Part shown: one piece after another, positions 6,916 through 45,732 of the stretch | How the letters are laid out: each line of letters opens with the position of its first letter | Numbering within the stretch: the stretch's first letter is position 1 | Source of the DNA: Escherichia coli | GTDB taxonomy: Bacteria > Pseudomonadota > Gammaproteobacteria > Enterobacterales > Enterobacteriaceae | Reading direction: 5' to 3' (one strand) | Assembly: GCF_041886205.1 (NCBI RefSeq) | Contig: NZ_CP169029.1 | Length of the DNA stretch: 64,000 bases | Notes under the pieces: generated by a model | Databases searched by the model: none | The model's input: only the letters and a program-made list of their open reading frames with translations | Told to the model about the DNA's origin: nothing | Translations under genes and position numbers: made by a program

Positions 6916-7857
6916 ATGGAAAAGAGAAAAATTATTCTGGATTGTGATCCGGGTCATGATGATGCTATTGCAATGATGATGGCAGCGAAACATCCGGCAA
7001 TAGATTTATTAGGCATCACTATTGTAGCGGGTAATCAGACGCTTGATAAAACATTAATTAATGGCCTGAATGTTTGCCAGAAACTGGAGATTAATGTTCC
7101 GGTTTATGCGGGGATGCCGCAACCCATTATGCGTAAACAAATCGTTGCCGATAATATTCACGGTGAAACCGGACTGGATGGCCCGGTATTCGAGCCGCTG
7201 ACCTGCCAGGCAGAAAGTACCCACGCGGTGAAATACATCATTGATACCCTGATGGCAAGCGATGGCGATATCACTCTGGTGCCGGTTGGTCCGCTTTCAA
7301 ATATCGCGGTGGCAATGCGTATGCAACCCGCGATCCTGCCCAAAATCCGTGAAATTGTGCTAATGGGCGGCGCTTACGGTACAGGCAACTTCACGCCATC
7401 TGCCGAGTTCAACATCTTTGCTGATCCGGAAGCAGCCCGCGTGGTGTTCACCTCCGGCGTTCCATTAGTGATGATGGGCCTCGATCTCACCAACCAGACC
7501 GTTTGCACCCCGGACGTGATTGCACGGATGGAAAGGGCAGGCGGCCCTGCCGGAGAGCTGTTCAGCGACATCATGAACTTCACTCTCAAAACGCAGTTCG
7601 AAAACTACGGCCTGGCTGGCGGCCCGGTGCACGACGCCACCTGCATCGGTTATCTGATTAACCCTGATGGCATTAAAACCCAGGAGATGTACGTCGAAGT
7701 GGACGTCAACAGTGGCCCTTGCTATGGGCGTACCGTCTGCGACGAGCTGGGCGTTCTTGGCAAGCCCGCTAATACCAAAGTCGGCATCACTATTGATACC
7801 GACTGGTTCTGGGGCTTAGTCGAAGAGTGCGTGCGCGGCTACATCAAAACCCATTAA
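6916..7857 (+). CDS. rihB: Pyrimidine-specific ribonucleoside hydrolase RihB
   Basis: 313-aa ORF with the N-terminal DCDPGHDDA aspartate-cluster motif of IU-nucleoside hydrolases. Confidence 0.9.
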
Positions 7858-15281: not shown

Positions 15282-17261
15282 ATGTTTAGGTTGAACCCTT
15301 TCGTACGGGTCGGGCTGTGTTTGTCCGCTATTTCTTGTGCATGGCCTGTGTTAGCGGTCGATGATGATGGCGAAACGATGGTTGTCACTGCATCTTCCGT
15401 GGAACAAAATCTTAAAGATGCACCTGCCAGTATCAGCGTCATTACCCAGGAAGACCTGCAGCGAAAACCGGTACAGAATCTGAAGGATGTCCTCAAAGAA
15501 GTGCCTGGCGTACAACTGACGAACGAAGGGGATAACCGTAAGGGCGTTAGTATTCGTGGTCTGGACAGCAGCTATACCCTGATTCTCGTCGACGGTAAAC
15601 GCGTGAACTCCCGCAATGCCGTCTTCCGCCACAATGATTTCGATCTGAACTGGATCCCGGTCGATTCCATCGAACGTATTGAAGTGGTCCGTGGCCCGAT
15701 GTCGTCGCTGTACGGTTCCGATGCGCTCGGCGGTGTAGTGAATATCATCACCAAAAAAATCGGTCAGAAATGGTCGGGTACCGTTACCGTCGATACCACC
15801 ATTCAGGAACATCGCGATCGCGGTGACACCTATAACGGTCAGTTCTTTACCAGTGGACCATTAATTGATGGTGTGCTGGGAATGAAAGCTTACGGCAGCC
15901 TGGCAAAACGTGAAAAGGATGACCCGCAAAACTCAACGACCACCGATACCGGAGAAACGCCGCGTATTGAAGGATTCTCCAGCCGCGACGGCAATGTCGA
16001 ATTTGCCTGGACACCGAATCAAAATCACGATTTTACTGCCGGATACGGTTTCGACCGTCAGGATCGTGATTCCGACTCGCTGGACAAAAACCGCCTGGAA
16101 CGCCAGAACTACTCCGTCAGCCATAATGGGCGTTGGGATTACGGCACCAGCGAACTGAAATACTACGGTGAGAAAGTCGAGAACAAAAACCCTGGCAACA
16201 GCAGCCCGATAACTTCCGAAAGCAATACGGTCGACGGCAAATACACGTTGCCGCTGACGGCGATTAATCAGTTTCTCACGGTTGGCGGTGAATGGCATCA
16301 CGACAAACTTAGCGATGCGGTGAACCTGACCGGGGGAACCAGCTCCAAAACGTCCGCCAGCCAGTACGCGCTATTTGTGGAAGATGAATGGCGGATCTTC
16401 GAGCCGCTGGCGCTGACGACCGGCGTGCGTATGGACGATCACGAAACCTACGGTGAACACTGGAGTCCGCGTGCCTACCTGGTTTATAACGCCACCGACA
16501 CCGTAACGGTGAAAGGGGGCTGGGCGACGGCATTTAAAGCACCTTCTCTGTTGCAACTTAGCCCTGACTGGACGAGCAATTCCTGCCGTGGCACATGTAA
16601 GATTGTGGGTAGCCCGGATCTGAAACCAGAAACCAGCGAAAGTTGGGAGCTGGGGCTTTACTACATGGGTGAAGAAGGCTGGCTGGAAGGGGTTGAATCC
16701 AGCGTTACCGTTTTCCGTAACGATGTGAAAGATCGTATCAGCATCAGCCGTACGTCTGACGTCAACGCTGCACCGGGCTACCAAAACTTTGTCGGTTTTA
16801 CAGCGAACGGTGTGCCGGTATTTAGCTACTACAACGTTAACAAAGCACGTATTCAGGGCGTGGAAACCGAGCTGAAAATTCCGTTCAACGATGAATGGAA
16901 ACTGTCACTCAACTACACCTACAACGATGGTCGTGATGTCAGCAACGGCGAAAACAAACCGCTATCCGATCTGCCGTTCCATACCGCTAACGGTACGCTG
17001 GACTGGAAACCGCTGGCGCTGGAAGACTGGTCATTCTATGTTTCTGGTCACTATACCGGGCAGAAACGAGCCGACAGCGCGACGGCTAAAACACCTGGCG
17101 GTTATACCATCTGGAATACCGGCGCGGCCTGGCAGGTGACTAAAGACGTCAAACTGCGCGCAGGCGTGCTGAACCTTGGCGACAAGGATCTCAGCCGTGA
17201 TGACTACAGTTATAACGAAGATGGACGTCGTTACTTTATGGCAGTGGATTATCGCTTCTGA
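15282..17261 (+). CDS. cirA: TonB-dependent catecholate siderophore / colicin I receptor
   Basis: 659-aa ORF with signal peptide [25 protein letters not shown], TonB box region and C-terminal terminal-Phe beta-barrel (…MAVDYRF). Confidence 0.95.
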
Positions 17262-17319: not shown

Positions 17320-18642
17320 TTATAACCGATGAAATTTTGCCAGTAAGGCCAGTGAAAATGTTGTCAGCAAAATGGTAATGACGGCGTAAATATACACGCC
17401 TGACCATTCCCAACTGTTTTTCACCATAATTACTGGAAGCCCTGCCATTGCCGCACCTACATAACTAAACAAGCCCCTGAATCCAGTAATGGAACCTGCC
17501 GCATCTTTATGCGTAACATCCAGACATCCGACAGCGAATAACATATGTGGTCCATACAATGCAAACCCCATGATTGTAAACAGAATAGCCGTTAATGTGT
17601 AGGAGACGTCCTGTACCAGCGGCACGAGAACGATGCAAATACATAAGGCGATGGCAAACATTAATCCGGTCATCCAGCGGTTACTTTTAAACATAAAATC
17701 GGACAAGTACCCTGCAAGTAATCCCCCTGCAAGTCCACCTGCTTCAAACCAGGATATAATGGAGTTCGCTTTAATCAGGCTCCAGTTATGAACCTGAGAA
17801 TAATAAATTTGTGGCCAGTCATTGAGGATGGTGCGTGCAATATAGACTGACATATCCCCGAGGATAATTAGCCAAACTAATGGGTTGGTAAGAATATATT
17901 TAACGAAAATTTGCCAAAAACTCAGATCAACCGGGCTTGCTTTAACTTGCGCAAGTTCTGTCGGGTCGTTGCGCCACTTACCTACGTTAGGCAAACCGAG
18001 TGTGCCAGGACGATCTTTAATCGTAAACAGGGCAACAACCCCCATAATCAGCGAGATTACACCCGGAACATAAAAACCCATTTTCCAGCTGCCACTAAAA
18101 GCAATGGCAAAGCTTGTCAGGAGAGGTGCAAGACTACCGCCAATATTATGCGCCGCTTCAACAACTGCCCACCAGCGCCCGCGTTCATTTTTAGAGAACC
18201 ACGAGGCCATAATTTTTGCCATCGGCGGAAAACTGGTACCCTGAAGAATAGCATTAAGGCTATACAGGACATAGAACGCAGCAACGCTATCTGAAAAACC
18301 GAAAAGAATGTTAACAATACCGACGCCAATAAGTACGGGGCCGGTCATCGCGCGTGGGTTAATTTTATCAACTAACATGCCACCTACAAACTTCATGGAG
18401 CCATAAAGAATGTAAAAGACCGATGACATGATAGCGAAATCTTGTGCAGTTAATGACGTATCCGTTAACATCGCCGGCATGGCCGCAGAGAAATTCTTGC
18501 GGGTTAAATAAAATACGGCATAAGAGATAAATACAGAGGTGATGATTTCAATGCGAAATTTTTTATAAGTATGATCAACTTCTTCTTTCGGTTTGACCAC
18601 TGGTTGGTCGGCCTGGCTGAAAATAAATTTTTTCAAGCTCAT
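17320..18642 (-). CDS. Organophosphate:Pi antiporter (OPA/MFS; GlpT/UhpT/PgtP-like) transporter, accessory
   Basis: 440-aa 12-TM-type ORF with the GlpT-like N-terminal YLTRKNF motif and overall GlpT/UhpT-like architecture; AAGGAA Shine-Dalgarno before the ATG at 18642; 32 nt downstream of the phosphatase gene on the same strand. Confidence 0.8.
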   Translation of the reverse strand: MSLKKFIFSQADQPVVKPKEEVDHTYKKFRIEIITSVFISYAVFYLTRKNFSAAMPAMLTDTSLTAQDFAIMSSVFYILYGSMKFVGGMLVDKINPRAMTGPVLIGVGIVNILFGFSDSVAAFYVLYSLNAILQGTSFPPMAKIMASWFSKNERGRWWAVVEAAHNIGGSLAPLLTSFAIAFSGSWKMGFYVPGVISLIMGVVALFTIKDRPGTLGLPNVGKWRNDPTELAQVKASPVDLSFWQIFVKYILTNPLVWLIILGDMSVYIARTILNDWPQIYYSQVHNWSLIKANSIISWFEAGGLAGGLLAGYLSDFMFKSNRWMTGLMFAIALCICIVLVPLVQDVSYTLTAILFTIMGFALYGPHMLFAVGCLDVTHKDAAGSITGFRGLFSYVGAAMAGLPVIMVKNSWEWSGVYIYAVITILLTTFSLALLAKFHRL

Positions 18643-18674: not shown

Positions 18675-19562
18675 CTATAATTTTTCTTCTATAAAGAAGA
18701 GAAGCGACTCGAAACCATTAAAATTAATCTGGTTAGCAACTTTTTCCCGGGTTTTAGGTTTTGCTTTCCATGCCACGCCATTCCCGGCATGCAGAAGCAT
18801 AGGAATATCATTAGCGCCATCTCCGCAGGCAATGATGTTTTCACGACAAATAGATAACTCTGTCGCCAAATTTATCAGGGTTTGCTTTTTCTTTTCTGCA
18901 TTCATAATAGGAAAGGTAATTTTGTCAGTTAAGCGATCTTCCTGAATGCGTACAGAGTTAGAAAATGCATAATCAAGTTGATATTTTTCTTTTAATCTCT
19001 CAGTGAAAATATCTAAACCTCCGGATATAATTGCCGTCTTAAATCCTTTTTCTTTAAAAATGGGAAGAATAGTTTTAAGACCTGGTGAAAGAGTCATCTG
19101 TTCACAAACCTGATGCAATATATCTTTATGCGTTCCTTTAAGCATGCCAATTCGACGGGTAAAACTGGTATCAAAATCGATTTTTCCTTCCATCGCTTCA
19201 CGGGTCAGCGCGGTGATTTTTTCAGAGATCCCGAGTCTACGGGCTATTTCATCAACGCCTTCCTCTTCAACAAAGGTGGAATCCATATCAAAGGCAATAA
19301 TTCCCTGACCCGGTAAGTCCGTAGGTTTGCGGAAAAAATCAAAATGATGATGATCAGCACGGTGACGTAAACCAGCATAAAAATCAGGATTGGTTACATC
19401 ATCTGGTAATATTAGCTTTAGATACTCTTTATTTATTTGCTCACTGTAATTCGTTGTTAACGAAAACACCGAGGATGAAACCTTTAAATGTTGCAAATAA
19501 TGTTCCAGACATTTTTTGGTGATGTCGATGCCTGTTGGCGACAAGAAATAAATAATCGTCAT
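18675..19562 (-). CDS. SerB-like HAD-family phosphoserine phosphatase, accessory
   Basis: 295-aa ORF with HAD motifs DMDST, IDEIA, ISGG, GDGANDIPML and AKPK that line up with E. coli SerB as I recall it; AAAGGAG Shine-Dalgarno. Confidence 0.8.
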   Translation of the reverse strand: MTIIYFLSPTGIDITKKCLEHYLQHLKVSSSVFSLTTNYSEQINKEYLKLILPDDVTNPDFYAGLRHRADHHHFDFFRKPTDLPGQGIIAFDMDSTFVEEEGVDEIARRLGISEKITALTREAMEGKIDFDTSFTRRIGMLKGTHKDILHQVCEQMTLSPGLKTILPIFKEKGFKTAIISGGLDIFTERLKEKYQLDYAFSNSVRIQEDRLTDKITFPIMNAEKKKQTLINLATELSICRENIIACGDGANDIPMLLHAGNGVAWKAKPKTREKVANQINFNGFESLLFFIEEKL

Positions 19563-19655
19563 TTACCGCTCCTTTTTATCTGTAATGATTATAATAAGGT
19601 TTCGTAGAGGCTGATGTATCTAACAATCACAGTTGTGAATGTTAAATAAAAGATA

Positions 19656-19716
19656 AAAAAGTACTTTTTTTGATACCTTGAAATAATAAGATACTAAAAG
19701 TACCATTTTTGATATC
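19656..19716. promoter_or_regulatory. Pair of related AT-rich palindromic sites in the divergent promoter region of the islet; candidate operators
   Basis: aaaaagtacttttt (perfect 14-bp palindrome, 19656-19669) with a related copy ctaaaagtaccatttttgata about 40 bp downstream; both are followed by tttgata. Confidence 0.4.
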
Positions 19717-19772
19717 TTTGCCAGGATATAACGAATAACGAGTTTTCAACGTTGAAGGAATTATTTACAAAA

Positions 19773-21125
19773 ATGGAAAGCTGCGTAGATATATTCAAGA
19801 TAGTTATAGGTCCATCCAGTTCCCGCACTGTCGGGCCAATGCGTGCGGCTTATAATTTTGTCTCACAATTGAAACAGCGAGAAATGTTACCTTTGTTGCG
19901 GAAGATTGATGTCGAACTTTATGGTGCACTGTCATTAAGCCGCAAGTGCCACAATGTTGATGTGGCGATTTATCTCGGTTTGCAAGGTCACTTACCTGAC
20001 AGCGTTGATATCCGCATGGAAATGTCCGCCATCAGGCGTGCAGAAACTGAGGCGACGCTGGAAGTTATGCCTGGTGTCAACGTTGGTGTAGCCATTATTT
20101 CTAATCCACAGGCGCACCCAGGGCATCCTTATGCGATGACATTTCGTGCCAGAGATGACTGGTTTACGCTTTATGAAGAAACCTGGTTTTCTGTCGGCGA
20201 CGGTCAGGTGCAAAAAGCGGGAGAGGCGATGATTCCCTCCTCAGTCACTCCACATCCTTTTGAATTCCAGAACGCAAACGAATTATTAAAACTTTGTCAG
20301 CAAAACGGATTATCTGTTGCGGCATTAATGATGAAAAACGAACTGCACTGCCAGACATCTGCTTTTTTGCATGACGATTTCAATAAAAAATGGGAAGTAA
20401 TGAAGGATGCGGTCTGTCGCGGGATGCATACAGAAGGATTACTTCCAGGTCCGTATCAGGTTAACCGTCGTGCCTGTGCTTTATATAAATCGTTGCAGGC
20501 AAAGGGGTTTACCAACGACTTCCTGACTGCGATCAATTGGGTCAATACTTTTGCCATTGCGGTGAGCGAAGAAAATGCTGCTGGTGGACGCGTCGTGACA
20601 GCACCCACCAACGGCGCGAGCGGTATTATCCCGGCCGTACTGTGTTGGTATGACAAATTCATTCACGAGATTGATACTTACTCCGTTACCCGCTTTTTTC
20701 TGACCGCCGGTGCCATCGCCATTCTGTTCAAAAAAAATGCCTCTATTCTGGGGTCTGAAGTTGGATGTCAGGGGGAAATAGGCGTTGCCAGTTCAATGGC
20801 GGCAGCAGGATTAGCAGAACTTATGGGCGGGTCAGTGACTCAGGTACTCAGCGCGGCAGAAATTGCGATGGAACACCATTTAGGTTTGACCTGTGATCCA
20901 GTTGGCGGGCAGGTACAAATTCCTTGTATTGAACGAAATGCTATTTCAGCCGTGAAAGCTATCAACGCAACGACGATGGCTTTGAGTCGCATAAGCGAGC
21001 CGTGCATTACACTGGATGAGATAATTTCCGCGATGTATGAAACCGGAAAAGATATGAGCGCTAAATACCGGGAAACTTATCATGGCTGTCTTAGCAAATT
21101 GCAGCCAAGAAAAAAGGACGCATAA
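19773..21125 (+). CDS. L-serine dehydratase (Fe-S, SdaA/SdaB/TdcG family), accessory paralog
   Basis: Conserved GIGPSSS-type N-terminus ([15 protein letters not shown]) and C-terminal [17 protein letters not shown] block; start placed at the ATG (MESCV…), since the ORF track begins at a TTG at 19752. Confidence 0.85.
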
Positions 21126-21126
21126 G

Positions 21127-21516
21127 ATGAAATATAATACGATGAATAACAACGAAATTATTTTATCTCTATGTGCACGCATTAAAGAAACGCGGATCTC
21201 CTTATCATTGACCCAGCAGCAGTTAGCCGATCGTGCATTGGTGGGCATTGCAACGGTCAAGCGGATTGAAAAGGGAGGAAGTTTAAATCTTGATACCCTC
21301 ATTTCTATTCTGCGCGCGCTGAATAAATTGCAAAATCTCGATGCCATATTGTTCGAAGCAGAAATGCGTAATTTCAATGAAAATACTTCCAGCGGCGAAG
21401 GGGCAGGGCGACTTCAGGTGCGCCAGCAACTGACAGATTTAAACCAGAAGTCTCCAGCCCCGCACGCAGATGACCGTGATTTTAGTACGGTGCTGGAAAA
21501 TACCTTTTGCTGGTGA
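21127..21516 (+). CDS. XRE-family HTH transcriptional regulator, accessory
   Basis: HTH LSLTQQQLADRALVGIATVKRIEKGG; ATG is 1 nt after the dehydratase stop, implying an operon. Start placed at the internal ATG 21127 (129 aa); the ORF track starts at 21082. Confidence 0.7.
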   Translation: MKYNTMNNNEIILSLCARIKETRISLSLTQQQLADRALVGIATVKRIEKGGSLNLDTLISILRALNKLQNLDAILFEAEMRNFNENTSSGEGAGRLQVRQQLTDLNQKSPAPHADDRDFSTVLENTFCW

Positions 21517-22386
<870 letters not shown>

Positions 22387-45659: not shown

Positions 45660-45732
45660 CGCACAAGCGTCGTATCAGGCATGGTACTCCGGATGTCGGA
45701 TGCGGCGCGAACGCCTTATCCAGGGCAATGGT
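45660..45732. repeat. REP/BIME cluster between yohF and yohD
   Basis: gtactccggatgtcggatgcggcgcgaacgccttatccagg and flanking ccggat-type units. Confidence 0.5.

Follow-up and report, generated by a model that had tools for sequence, protein, structure and literature searches.

A conserved pair of candidate operators for an XRE-family regulator linked to serine dehydratase genes in Escherichia coli and its relatives

Introduction

Which protein reads the paired repeats found between the two divergent operons of a small metabolic islet of Escherichia coli, and which part of these repeats does it read? The question arises from a stretch of 64,000 nucleotides of the E. coli chromosome (RefSeq assembly GCF_041886205.1, contig NZ_CP169029.1), hereafter the window, which carries a four-gene islet between cirA and yeiG. 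A leftward operon of the islet encodes a SerB-like phosphoserine phosphatase and a transporter of the major facilitator superfamily (MFS), and a rightward operon encodes an iron-sulphur (Fe-S) L-serine dehydratase (gene sda) and a small helix-turn-helix (HTH) regulator of the XRE family. An initial annotation of the region between both operons (positions 19563-19772) had pointed to a perfect palindrome with a related copy, and had proposed this palindrome as the unit bound by the co-encoded XRE protein. After comparing the locus with its relatives, we consider it likely that the two repeats are an operator pair for this regulator, the product of the last islet gene. The recognised unit is probably not the palindrome itself (AAAAAGTACTTTTT), and the axis of symmetry would lie 6 bp to the right of its GTAC centre.

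A conserved pair of sites in the divergent promoter region

All the sequence features initially described were found in the region, which spans 210 AT-rich base pairs with a GC content of 27.6%: the perfect 14-bp palindrome AAAAAGTACTTTTT lies at 19656-19669, the related copy CTAAAAGTACCATTTTTGATA lies some 40 bp away at 19694-19714, with 39 bp from start to start of the repeat, and the word TTTGATA follows both copies. The palindrome is in fact perfect out to 16 bp (AAAAAAGTACTTTTTT, 19655-19670), and a repeat search delimited a 23-nt direct repeat (19657-19679 and 19696-19718) of 87% identity with the same start-to-start distance. As evidence by itself, the perfect palindrome was rejected, since such palindromes are at chance level in the window: five reach 14 bp or more, where block shuffles gave 3.9 ± 2.0, and a single one reaches 16 bp, where the shuffles gave 0.93. 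Within the shuffled 210-bp region the corresponding probabilities were 0.04 and 0.012. The longer word AAAAGTACNNTTTTTGATA, allowing up to two mismatches, occurs in these two places only in the 64 kb, where 0.02 occurrences were expected.

A pattern scan of one genome per species yielded 40 loci with relatives of the regulator, 11 of which carry all four islet genes beside yeiG: those of Escherichia whittamii, Salmonella enterica subsp. arizonae and diarizonae, and eight Citrobacter genomes. In these 11 loci the SerB-like protein shows 59-62% identity to that of E. coli (81% in E. whittamii) and the regulator 68-73%, and the aligned intergenic regions have diverged save for four blocks, namely ATTrTAAT (19588-19595), ATCACAGwTrTGAATGTTAAA (19626-19646) and the two sites, referred to here as O1 (the site of the palindrome) and O2. 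Both sites are the best-conserved intergenic blocks in the 11 other species; in every islet species (n=12) they read AAArGTATyrTTTTTkATAy and stand 39 or 40 bp apart, with GTAT, the run of five T and ATA as their least variable parts. Moreover, four E. coli alleles with up to ~5% divergence in the rest of the region have O1 and O2 unchanged. We regard O1 and O2 as genuine conserved cis-regulatory elements.

The motif follows the regulator family

More distant relatives of the regulator occur in a different genomic setting, where the regulator gene is convergent to an operon for an sdaC-like transporter and a serine dehydratase (Mangrovibacter, Leminorella, Budvicia, Limnobaculum, Zophobihabitans and many Gilliamella). 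A position weight matrix (PWM) built from the 24 islet-type sites (two in each of the 12 species) gave its best scores in the sdaC-upstream regions of these distant loci, in many cases for two sites at a distance of 39-40 bp, and in the window it scored 26.3 for O1 and 28.5 for O2, the sole values above 10 bits. Read in the direction of sdaC, the distant sites form a clear dyad, tAAA-GTATCA-N4-TGATAC-TTTa, the flanks of which are symmetric too in spite of being outside the search pattern (correlation of 0.91 between the profile and its own reverse complement). Matches of at least 9 out of 12 to GTATCA-N4-TGATAC numbered 55 in 8.8 kb of sdaC-upstream DNA versus 6.3 ± 2.4 in shuffles, and there were 41 matches of at least 10 out of 12 in that DNA versus 21 in the other 255 kb. 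Successive sites are spaced 37-40 bp in 26 of 34 cases, and Leminorella, Budvicia and Limnobaculum, of the Budviciaceae, have two site pairs.

Aligned to this dyad, O1 would have its 16-nt core (GTACTTTTTTTGATAC) at 19661-19676, an extended 24-bp version at 19657-19680 and its axis at 19668/19669, whereas the core of O2 (GTACCATTTTTGATAT) would occupy 19700-19715, the extended version 19696-19719 and the axis 19707/19708. Their matches to the 12 defined positions amount to 9 for O1 and 10 for O2, which is the better conserved of the two (10-11 matches in all 12 species). The perfect 16-bp palindrome would then be composed of three parts of O1, its left A-tract flank, its left half-site and its central T-tract. 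The two operators, 39 bp from each other, are both inside the divergent region and thus in the promoter region of the regulator's own operon or of its target operon, with O2 65 nt and O1 104 nt upstream of the sda ATG, O1 being proximal to the promoter of the serB-like gene. Three further matches of 11 out of 12 in the window (7784, 29855 and 45672) were discarded as additional members of the regulon: they have no A/T flanks and are probably due to chance, those at 7784 and 29855 being inside long open reading frames (ORFs) and that at 45672 between two large ORFs, where just one minus-strand ORF of 117 aa overlaps it; as isolated matches, the three exceed the expectation of a uniform model (~0.14).

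The relation between sites and regulator was followed in a co-occurrence test with the SdaC homologues of ten further Enterobacterales. Pectobacterium carotovorum was alone among the ten in having a homologue of the regulator, convergent after sdaB, and alone in having a site pair (9 and 11 matches out of 12, 37 bp apart). The nine regulator-less sdaCB loci (Atlantibacter, Yersinia ruckeri, Hafnia, Buttiauxella, Serratia quinivorans, Edwardsiella tarda, Franconibacter, Pluralibacter and Enterobacillus) showed no pair and only isolated matches of 8-9 out of 12, and so did the regions upstream of sdaC and sdaA of E. coli K-12. Altogether, regulator and sites are both present in seven independent lineages and both absent from ten, with absence of the regulator judged within ~4 kb of each sdaCB locus (exact test, ~5e-5, by our own count of lineages).

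A different context for the same motif was offered by Pokkaliibacter plantistimulans (L020 5850-7739), where the homologue of the regulator forms, as HipB, a true hipBA pair with the gene after it, which scores 169 bits for HipA_C and 68 bits for Couple_hipA. This homologue is 33% identical, shares the recognition helix and has a tail that contains a Trp. The region upstream of this homologue holds four sites with 10, 10, 9 and 10 matches out of 12, spaced 40, 35 and 41 bp, three of which are the only matches of at least 10 out of 12 in the 12.4-kb locus. Because these sites accompany hipBA with no sda gene, the motif appears to be tied to the protein family rather than to the serine genes. 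The regulators linked to sdaCB have no HipA neighbour, and among the homologues only that of Pokkaliibacter has one. Autoregulatory sites were also sought upstream of the separately transcribed regulator genes of the sdaCB-type loci, with no convincing case, the matches of 9 out of 12 overlapping the start codon. The initial suggestion of the co-encoded XRE protein as the binder is thus upheld by the seven lineages in which the family co-occurs with same-motif pairs of the same 37-40 bp spacing and by the absence of pairs from the ten regulator-less loci; this protein is by far the best candidate for binding O1 and O2, which are very probably its operators.

The regulator and its resemblance to HipB

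The regulator contains an XRE (Cro/C1-type) domain according to Pfam (HTH_3, 37.4 bits versus a cut-off of 23), and its AlphaFold2 model shows a five-helix HTH domain of the dimer type at residues 8-89, with a predicted local distance difference test (pLDDT) score above 90, and a disordered tail at residues 91-129 (pLDDT <50). Alignments of the family reveal an invariant recognition helix, GIAT(I/V)KR(I/V)E, a basic patch near residue 95-100, and a terminal or near-terminal C-terminal Trp conserved in at least 90% of the members. The nearest solved folds in a Foldseek search were ClgR, the HipB of Shewanella, C.Esp1396I and 434 Cro, small HTH proteins of the XRE type that bind inverted repeats as dimers, and every match was an XRE protein; the Shewanella HipB superposes over ~55 residues with a root-mean-square deviation of 1.1 Å and 38-40% identity.

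With its HTH domain followed by a disordered tail that carries a conserved Trp, the protein has the build of a HipB-like antitoxin, yet it reaches 42.5 bits with the model TIGR03070, below the cut-off of 71.65, and a BLASTP comparison of the regulator with E. coli HipB detected no significant similarity. The latter protein binds TATCCN8GGATA cooperatively, and its unstructured 16-residue tail, ending in a conserved Trp, is a signal for degradation by Lon (PMC3376134). The Pokkaliibacter homologue, the similarity of fold and the features of the tail are the basis of a link between the family and HipB, which we take as a lead; the hipBA setting in Pokkaliibacter also suggests that the regulators beside sda genes descend from HipB-type antitoxins and have lost the toxin. 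A more tentative reading, the chances of which we put rather low, goes further and sees in this protein a domesticated HipB-type antitoxin without toxin that was recruited to L-serine catabolism, that would receive its signal through the disordered Trp tail and not through a ligand pocket, and that from its phased sites would work together with CRP rather than by plain steric repression. Such a recruitment could have taken place at sdaC-sdaB in several Enterobacterales and Orbales and at the phosphoserine islet in Escherichia, Salmonella and Citrobacter, and the tail could serve for Lon-type proteolysis, as in HipB, or for docking, for example on the Fe-S serine dehydratase.

The promoter module and a proposed mechanism

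On the minus strand, the order of elements from the operators to the serB-like gene is O2, O1, 29 nt, TGTGAT, a -10 box, a Shine-Dalgarno sequence and the ATG. The TGTGAT (19631-19626), which resembles the upstream half-site of a CRP box, belongs to the block ATCACAGwTrTGAATGTTAAA conserved in all 12 islet loci. The predicted -10 of the serB-like/MFS operon (TATAAT on the minus strand, ATTATA on the plus strand; 19588-19593) is TATAAT or TACAAT in all 12 species and ends 25-26 nt upstream of the ATG at 19562, with a predicted transcription start near 19581 and a Shine-Dalgarno AGGAG at 19573-19569. From the first T of TGTGAT to TATAAT there are 38 nt. If this is a CRP box of the type TGTGA-N6-TCACA, it would extend from 19631 to 19616 on the minus strand, with its centre near -41.5 or -42.5, its downstream half being poor in E. 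coli (5/10). A search for a full CRP box in the E. coli region was unsuccessful, the best scores being just 7/10 and at other positions.

The layout operator-TGTGAT-(-10) is kept in every regulator-positive lineage. The distance from the centre of the proximal operator to that of the TGTGAT box is 44 bp in eight sdaC loci of Enterobacterales, 45 bp in the islet, 54-56 bp in Gilliamella, ~54 bp in Zophobihabitans (by manual count) and 64 bp in Pectobacterium, thus in steps of about one helical turn, and TGTGAT precedes a -10-like hexamer by 37-38 nt across lineages (35 nt in Mangrovibacter). The box of Gilliamella is a full CRP palindrome, TGTGAT-N4-ATCAC (9-10/10), whereas Enterobacterales keep the upstream half only (5-7/10). 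No TGTGA occurs within 420 nt upstream of sdaC in K-12 or in eight of the nine loci without the regulator; in the ninth, that of Enterobacillus, the only occurrence is a TGTGAAT, probably due to chance. The combination of TGTGAT, 37-38 nt and a -10 has the geometry of a class II CRP-dependent promoter, which is predicted to drive the phosphatase-transporter operon, and this conserved module places the operators near positions -86 and -125 of that operon. The position of the sites, their helical phasing and the four-site arrays would be easier to reconcile with a co-activator, or with a regulator coupled to CRP, than with simple steric repression.

In Gilliamella (L022-L038), the stretch that separates the proximal operator from the CRP box contains a strongly conserved element, TTGATTATATTT, ~75-95 nt upstream of the sdaC -10. 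One locus allows the reading TTGATA-17-TATATT, with the -35 within the operator, and the element may represent a second promoter. A promoter for sda was also sought by conservation, and no -35/-10 pair is kept across the 12 species nor is there anything at a fixed distance. Likewise, a CRP-like TGATAT-N5-TCACG over O2 in Citrobacter was dismissed, as it lies 34-36 nt, and not 37-38 nt, from the nearest -10-like hexamer.

In the mechanism that we propose, O1 and O2 would act as degenerate copies of tAAA-GTATCA-N4-TGATAC-TTTa, the half-sites of which, one helical turn apart, would suit a dimer of a five-helix HTH protein similar to Cro or HipB. Two such dimers would then be placed 39 bp apart on both sites, and they probably bind together because the distance of 37-40 bp is held across two bacterial orders; we infer that the regulator binds O1 and O2 and that its dimers cooperate. 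The pair would stand upstream of the TGTGAT/-10 module of the phosphatase-transporter operon and overlap or abut the promoter of the sda-regulator operon. An actual overlap with the latter promoter is probable and would permit autoregulation. In this way, the regulator would coordinate both halves of an apparent pathway from phosphoserine to pyruvate as well as its own synthesis, and we lean towards autorepression of the sda operon and, for the transporter operon, control coupled to CRP.

Alternative explanations

The unit originally proposed was AAAAAGTACTTTTT, made of an A-tract, the GTAC core and a T-tract, with the dimer centred on GTAC and TTTGATA as a mere trailing feature. The palindrome is indeed perfect over 16 bp in E. 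coli, and the islet-type site 1 is partly symmetric about GTAy, with 5-6 of 8 pairs (mean of 5.9 versus 3.5 for the other axis). The perfect symmetry (8/8 pairs) is however restricted to E. coli, since the orthologous site 1 has 5-6/8 and site 2 just 3-5/8 pairs about the GTAC axis, and the GTAC core itself is specific to E. coli, other species having GTAT, GTGC, GCGT or GCAT. The distant sites are asymmetric about the GTAC axis and strongly symmetric about the centre of GTATCA-N4-TGATAC, unselected flanks included, TTGATAy is the most invariant portion of the word, and a perfect palindrome of 14-16 bp is at chance level in the window. We therefore regard the palindrome as unlikely to be what the protein recognises. 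TTTGATA, which does follow both copies, would be the right half-site and not a trailing feature, as judged from the distant dyads, and the eye-catching palindrome would be a by-product, the conserved unit being visible only by cross-species comparison. The position of the dyad axis in E. coli, as we infer it, is derived from the distant homologous sites and from the invariant recognition helix. A covariation of the E. coli-specific I44V change in this helix with the T-to-C change at position 4 of both operators (GTAT to GTAC) was also considered and rejected; a Citrobacter-like metagenomic locus (P0004, L057) encodes V44 yet has GTATCA, which counts against it.

Another reading leaves the XRE neighbour as incidental. 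A 27.6% GC region with phased A- and T-tracts could owe its repeats to curved DNA or UP elements, or to another conserved factor such as IHF, Fis, FNR, ArgR, Lrp, ArcA or H-NS; the half-site TATCAA resembles the WATCAA of the IHF consensus, and a CRP-like element is found alongside the sites. We give this little credit, because all such factors are present in the ten regulator-less species, the sdaC upstream regions of which have no pair, because the motif accompanies the family even at a hipBA locus where sda genes are missing, and because specific GTATC/GATAC cores are conserved beyond mere AT-richness. By inspection, the dyad also misfits the consensus sequences WATCAANNNNTTR, TTGAT-N4-ATCAA, TGAAT-N4-ATTCA and GNNNAWWWWWTNNNC, and none of those of IHF, FNR, ArgR, Fis, TyrR and TrpR fits. 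It could further be argued that the repeats are not operators but only core promoter elements, with for example TTGATA serving as the -35 and TAyCAT as the -10, or a transcribed RNA structure. TTGATA is similar to a -35, GTATCAT holds a near-consensus -10, TTGAAA-17-TACCAT is found over O2, and TTGATA-17-TATATT can be read from the proximal site in one Gilliamella locus. The promoter-like match over O2 is however at chance level, a -35/-10 pairing is not conserved across the 12 islet species, and neither dyad symmetry nor a fixed 39-bp pairing nor four-site arrays are promoter properties; as to RNA, an Rfam search of 19300-20000 gave no match. Such a role seems to us very improbable as the whole explanation, and a promoter function would in any case be compatible with that of an operator, as operators often overlap promoter hexamers.

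Returning to the operator pair for the XRE-family regulator, several points weigh against it. With 9 and 10 matches out of 12, the dyads of E. coli are imperfect, and their T-tract centre is asymmetric. In the islet-type sites alone, the symmetry count favours neither axis decisively: about the GTAC axis the mean is 4.8 of 8 pairs (5.9 for site 1 and 3.75 for site 2), and about the axis proposed here it is 4.0 of 8 (3.5 and 4.5), a low count because the centre is a run of T. In the co-occurrence data, absence of the regulator means only absence within ~4 kb of each sdaCB locus, and many of the regulator-positive loci are from closely related Gilliamella. Moreover, it is unusual for a small XRE repressor to have its sites near the predicted positions -86 and -125, and the sda promoter could not be placed, the sole sigma-70-like match (TTGAAA-17-TACCAT, 19678-19706) being at the chance level (1 versus 1.5 expected).

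Genes and distribution of the islet

The islet was found in 86 of 5426 complete E. coli genomes, K-12 being without it, and it is also adjacent to yeiG in Salmonella arizonae and diarizonae and in Citrobacter. Its left neighbour is cirA (15282-17261, plus strand). The leftward operon, on the minus strand, starts with the gene of the SerB-like phosphoserine phosphatase (18675-19562; 295 aa), which scores 208 bits for TIGR00338 serB versus a cut-off of 144, in agreement with the RefSeq annotation. The second gene (17320-18642) encodes the MFS transporter (Pfam MFS_1), of the organophosphate:phosphate antiporter (OPA) type and similar to UhpC, PgtP and GlpT, with scores of 265-423 bits for the NCBIfam models of these three proteins, every one of them below the curated cut-off of its model (407.75-748 bits). 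The rightward operon, on the plus strand, opens with the gene of the L-serine ammonia-lyase (19773-21125), an Fe-S L-serine dehydratase with SDH_alpha and SDH_beta domains and 545 bits for TIGR00720, followed by that of the 129-aa regulator (21127-21516). The right neighbour, yeiG (21517-22353, minus strand), is convergent with the regulator gene. There is no hipA among the islet genes, which encode only the MFS, SerB-like, Sda and HTH proteins, and so no adjacent kinase toxin that would make the islet a hipBA module.

The ATG of the regulator (21127) is found 1 nt past the sda stop, which makes translational coupling of both genes likely, and the stop codon of the regulator (21514-21516) abuts the last base of yeiG (21517), leaving no space for a terminator. 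The divergence between E. coli and Citrobacter/Salmonella is uneven along the islet: the MFS protein shows 88-93% identity, near that of the flanking YeiG (86-92%), and the SerB-like protein, the dehydratase and the regulator show 59-62%, 72-77% and 68-73%, respectively, which suggests differing histories or selective pressures for adjacent genes. A possible function of the islet, as read from its gene content, is a catabolic route for O-phosphoserine, with uptake by the OPA-type antiporter, dephosphorylation by the SerB-like enzyme and conversion of L-serine by the dehydratase into pyruvate and ammonia. Literature searches on a phosphoserine-uptake islet and on a cirA-yeiG island found nothing relevant.

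Significance and comparison with known systems

The analysis offers a concrete and testable operator, GTATCA-N4-TGATAC in pairs 39 bp apart, together with a candidate regulator for genes to which no specific regulator has so far been assigned: the sdaC-sdaB operons for serine uptake and deamination of several Enterobacterales and of the bee-gut Orbales, and the rare islet of E. coli, Salmonella and Citrobacter. Serine catabolism matters for enterobacterial fitness in the gut and the urinary tract, and a dedicated switch for it would consequently be of practical interest. If the family is what it looks like, a HipB-like antitoxin that lost its toxin and turned into a metabolic regulator would be an example of such a transition traceable in sequences. 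Literature searches found no paper on an XRE regulator of sdaC or of serine dehydratase genes, and no name, curated family model or paper was found for this regulator or its regulon.

Among known systems, hipBA is the closest in several respects. HipB of E. coli is a small dimeric HTH protein of the XRE/Cro type whose C-terminal tail is disordered and has a conserved Trp at its end (PMC3376134), and the regulator is probably of the same build. The hipBA operators are several inverted repeats with a TATC-containing half-site, of the form TATCCN8GGATA, bound cooperatively (PMC3376134), and the sites described here would be of a similar kind. Unlike hipBA, neither the islet regulator nor those linked to sdaCB have an adjacent hipA, their neighbours are metabolic genes, and the tail of the regulator is ~40 residues long versus 16 in HipB. 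The operator consensus differs as well, since the sites here follow (G)TATCA-N4-TGATA(C), that is TATC-N6-GATA, 4 bp shorter than the TATC-N10-GATA of HipB.

The C proteins of restriction-modification systems, such as C.Esp1396I, belong to the same fold class and place two dimers on a pair of dyads in the promoter region of their own gene. These proteins activate at low occupancy and repress at high occupancy. Their dyads, however, are adjacent (~35 bp in total) and overlap the -35, whereas in our case 39 bp separate the centres, which are found a good way upstream of the promoter of the transporter operon, and there are no restriction-modification genes at the islet.

The promoter side of the system recalls melAB/MelR, CytR-CRP and araBAD, with a CRP-type box at a class II position, regulator sites phased upstream, and arrays of two or four sites; as in such CRP-co-dependent promoters, the CRP box is degenerate and may need a partner protein. 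The difference lies in the regulator, a small XRE protein and not a member of the AraC or LacI families, and CRP binding is here read from sequence geometry only. With regard to the control of the sda genes in E. coli, sdaA is controlled by Lrp, and sdaCB and tdc by CRP. The targets proposed here are similar, a serine dehydratase and a transporter with a promoter element of the catabolite type, although the regions upstream of sdaC and sdaA in K-12 are without the motif and the TGTGAT module. Altogether, the system would resemble the repressor-operator systems of XRE or HipB-type proteins, with several dyads occupied cooperatively, possibly at a CRP-co-dependent promoter, rather than a hipBA module.

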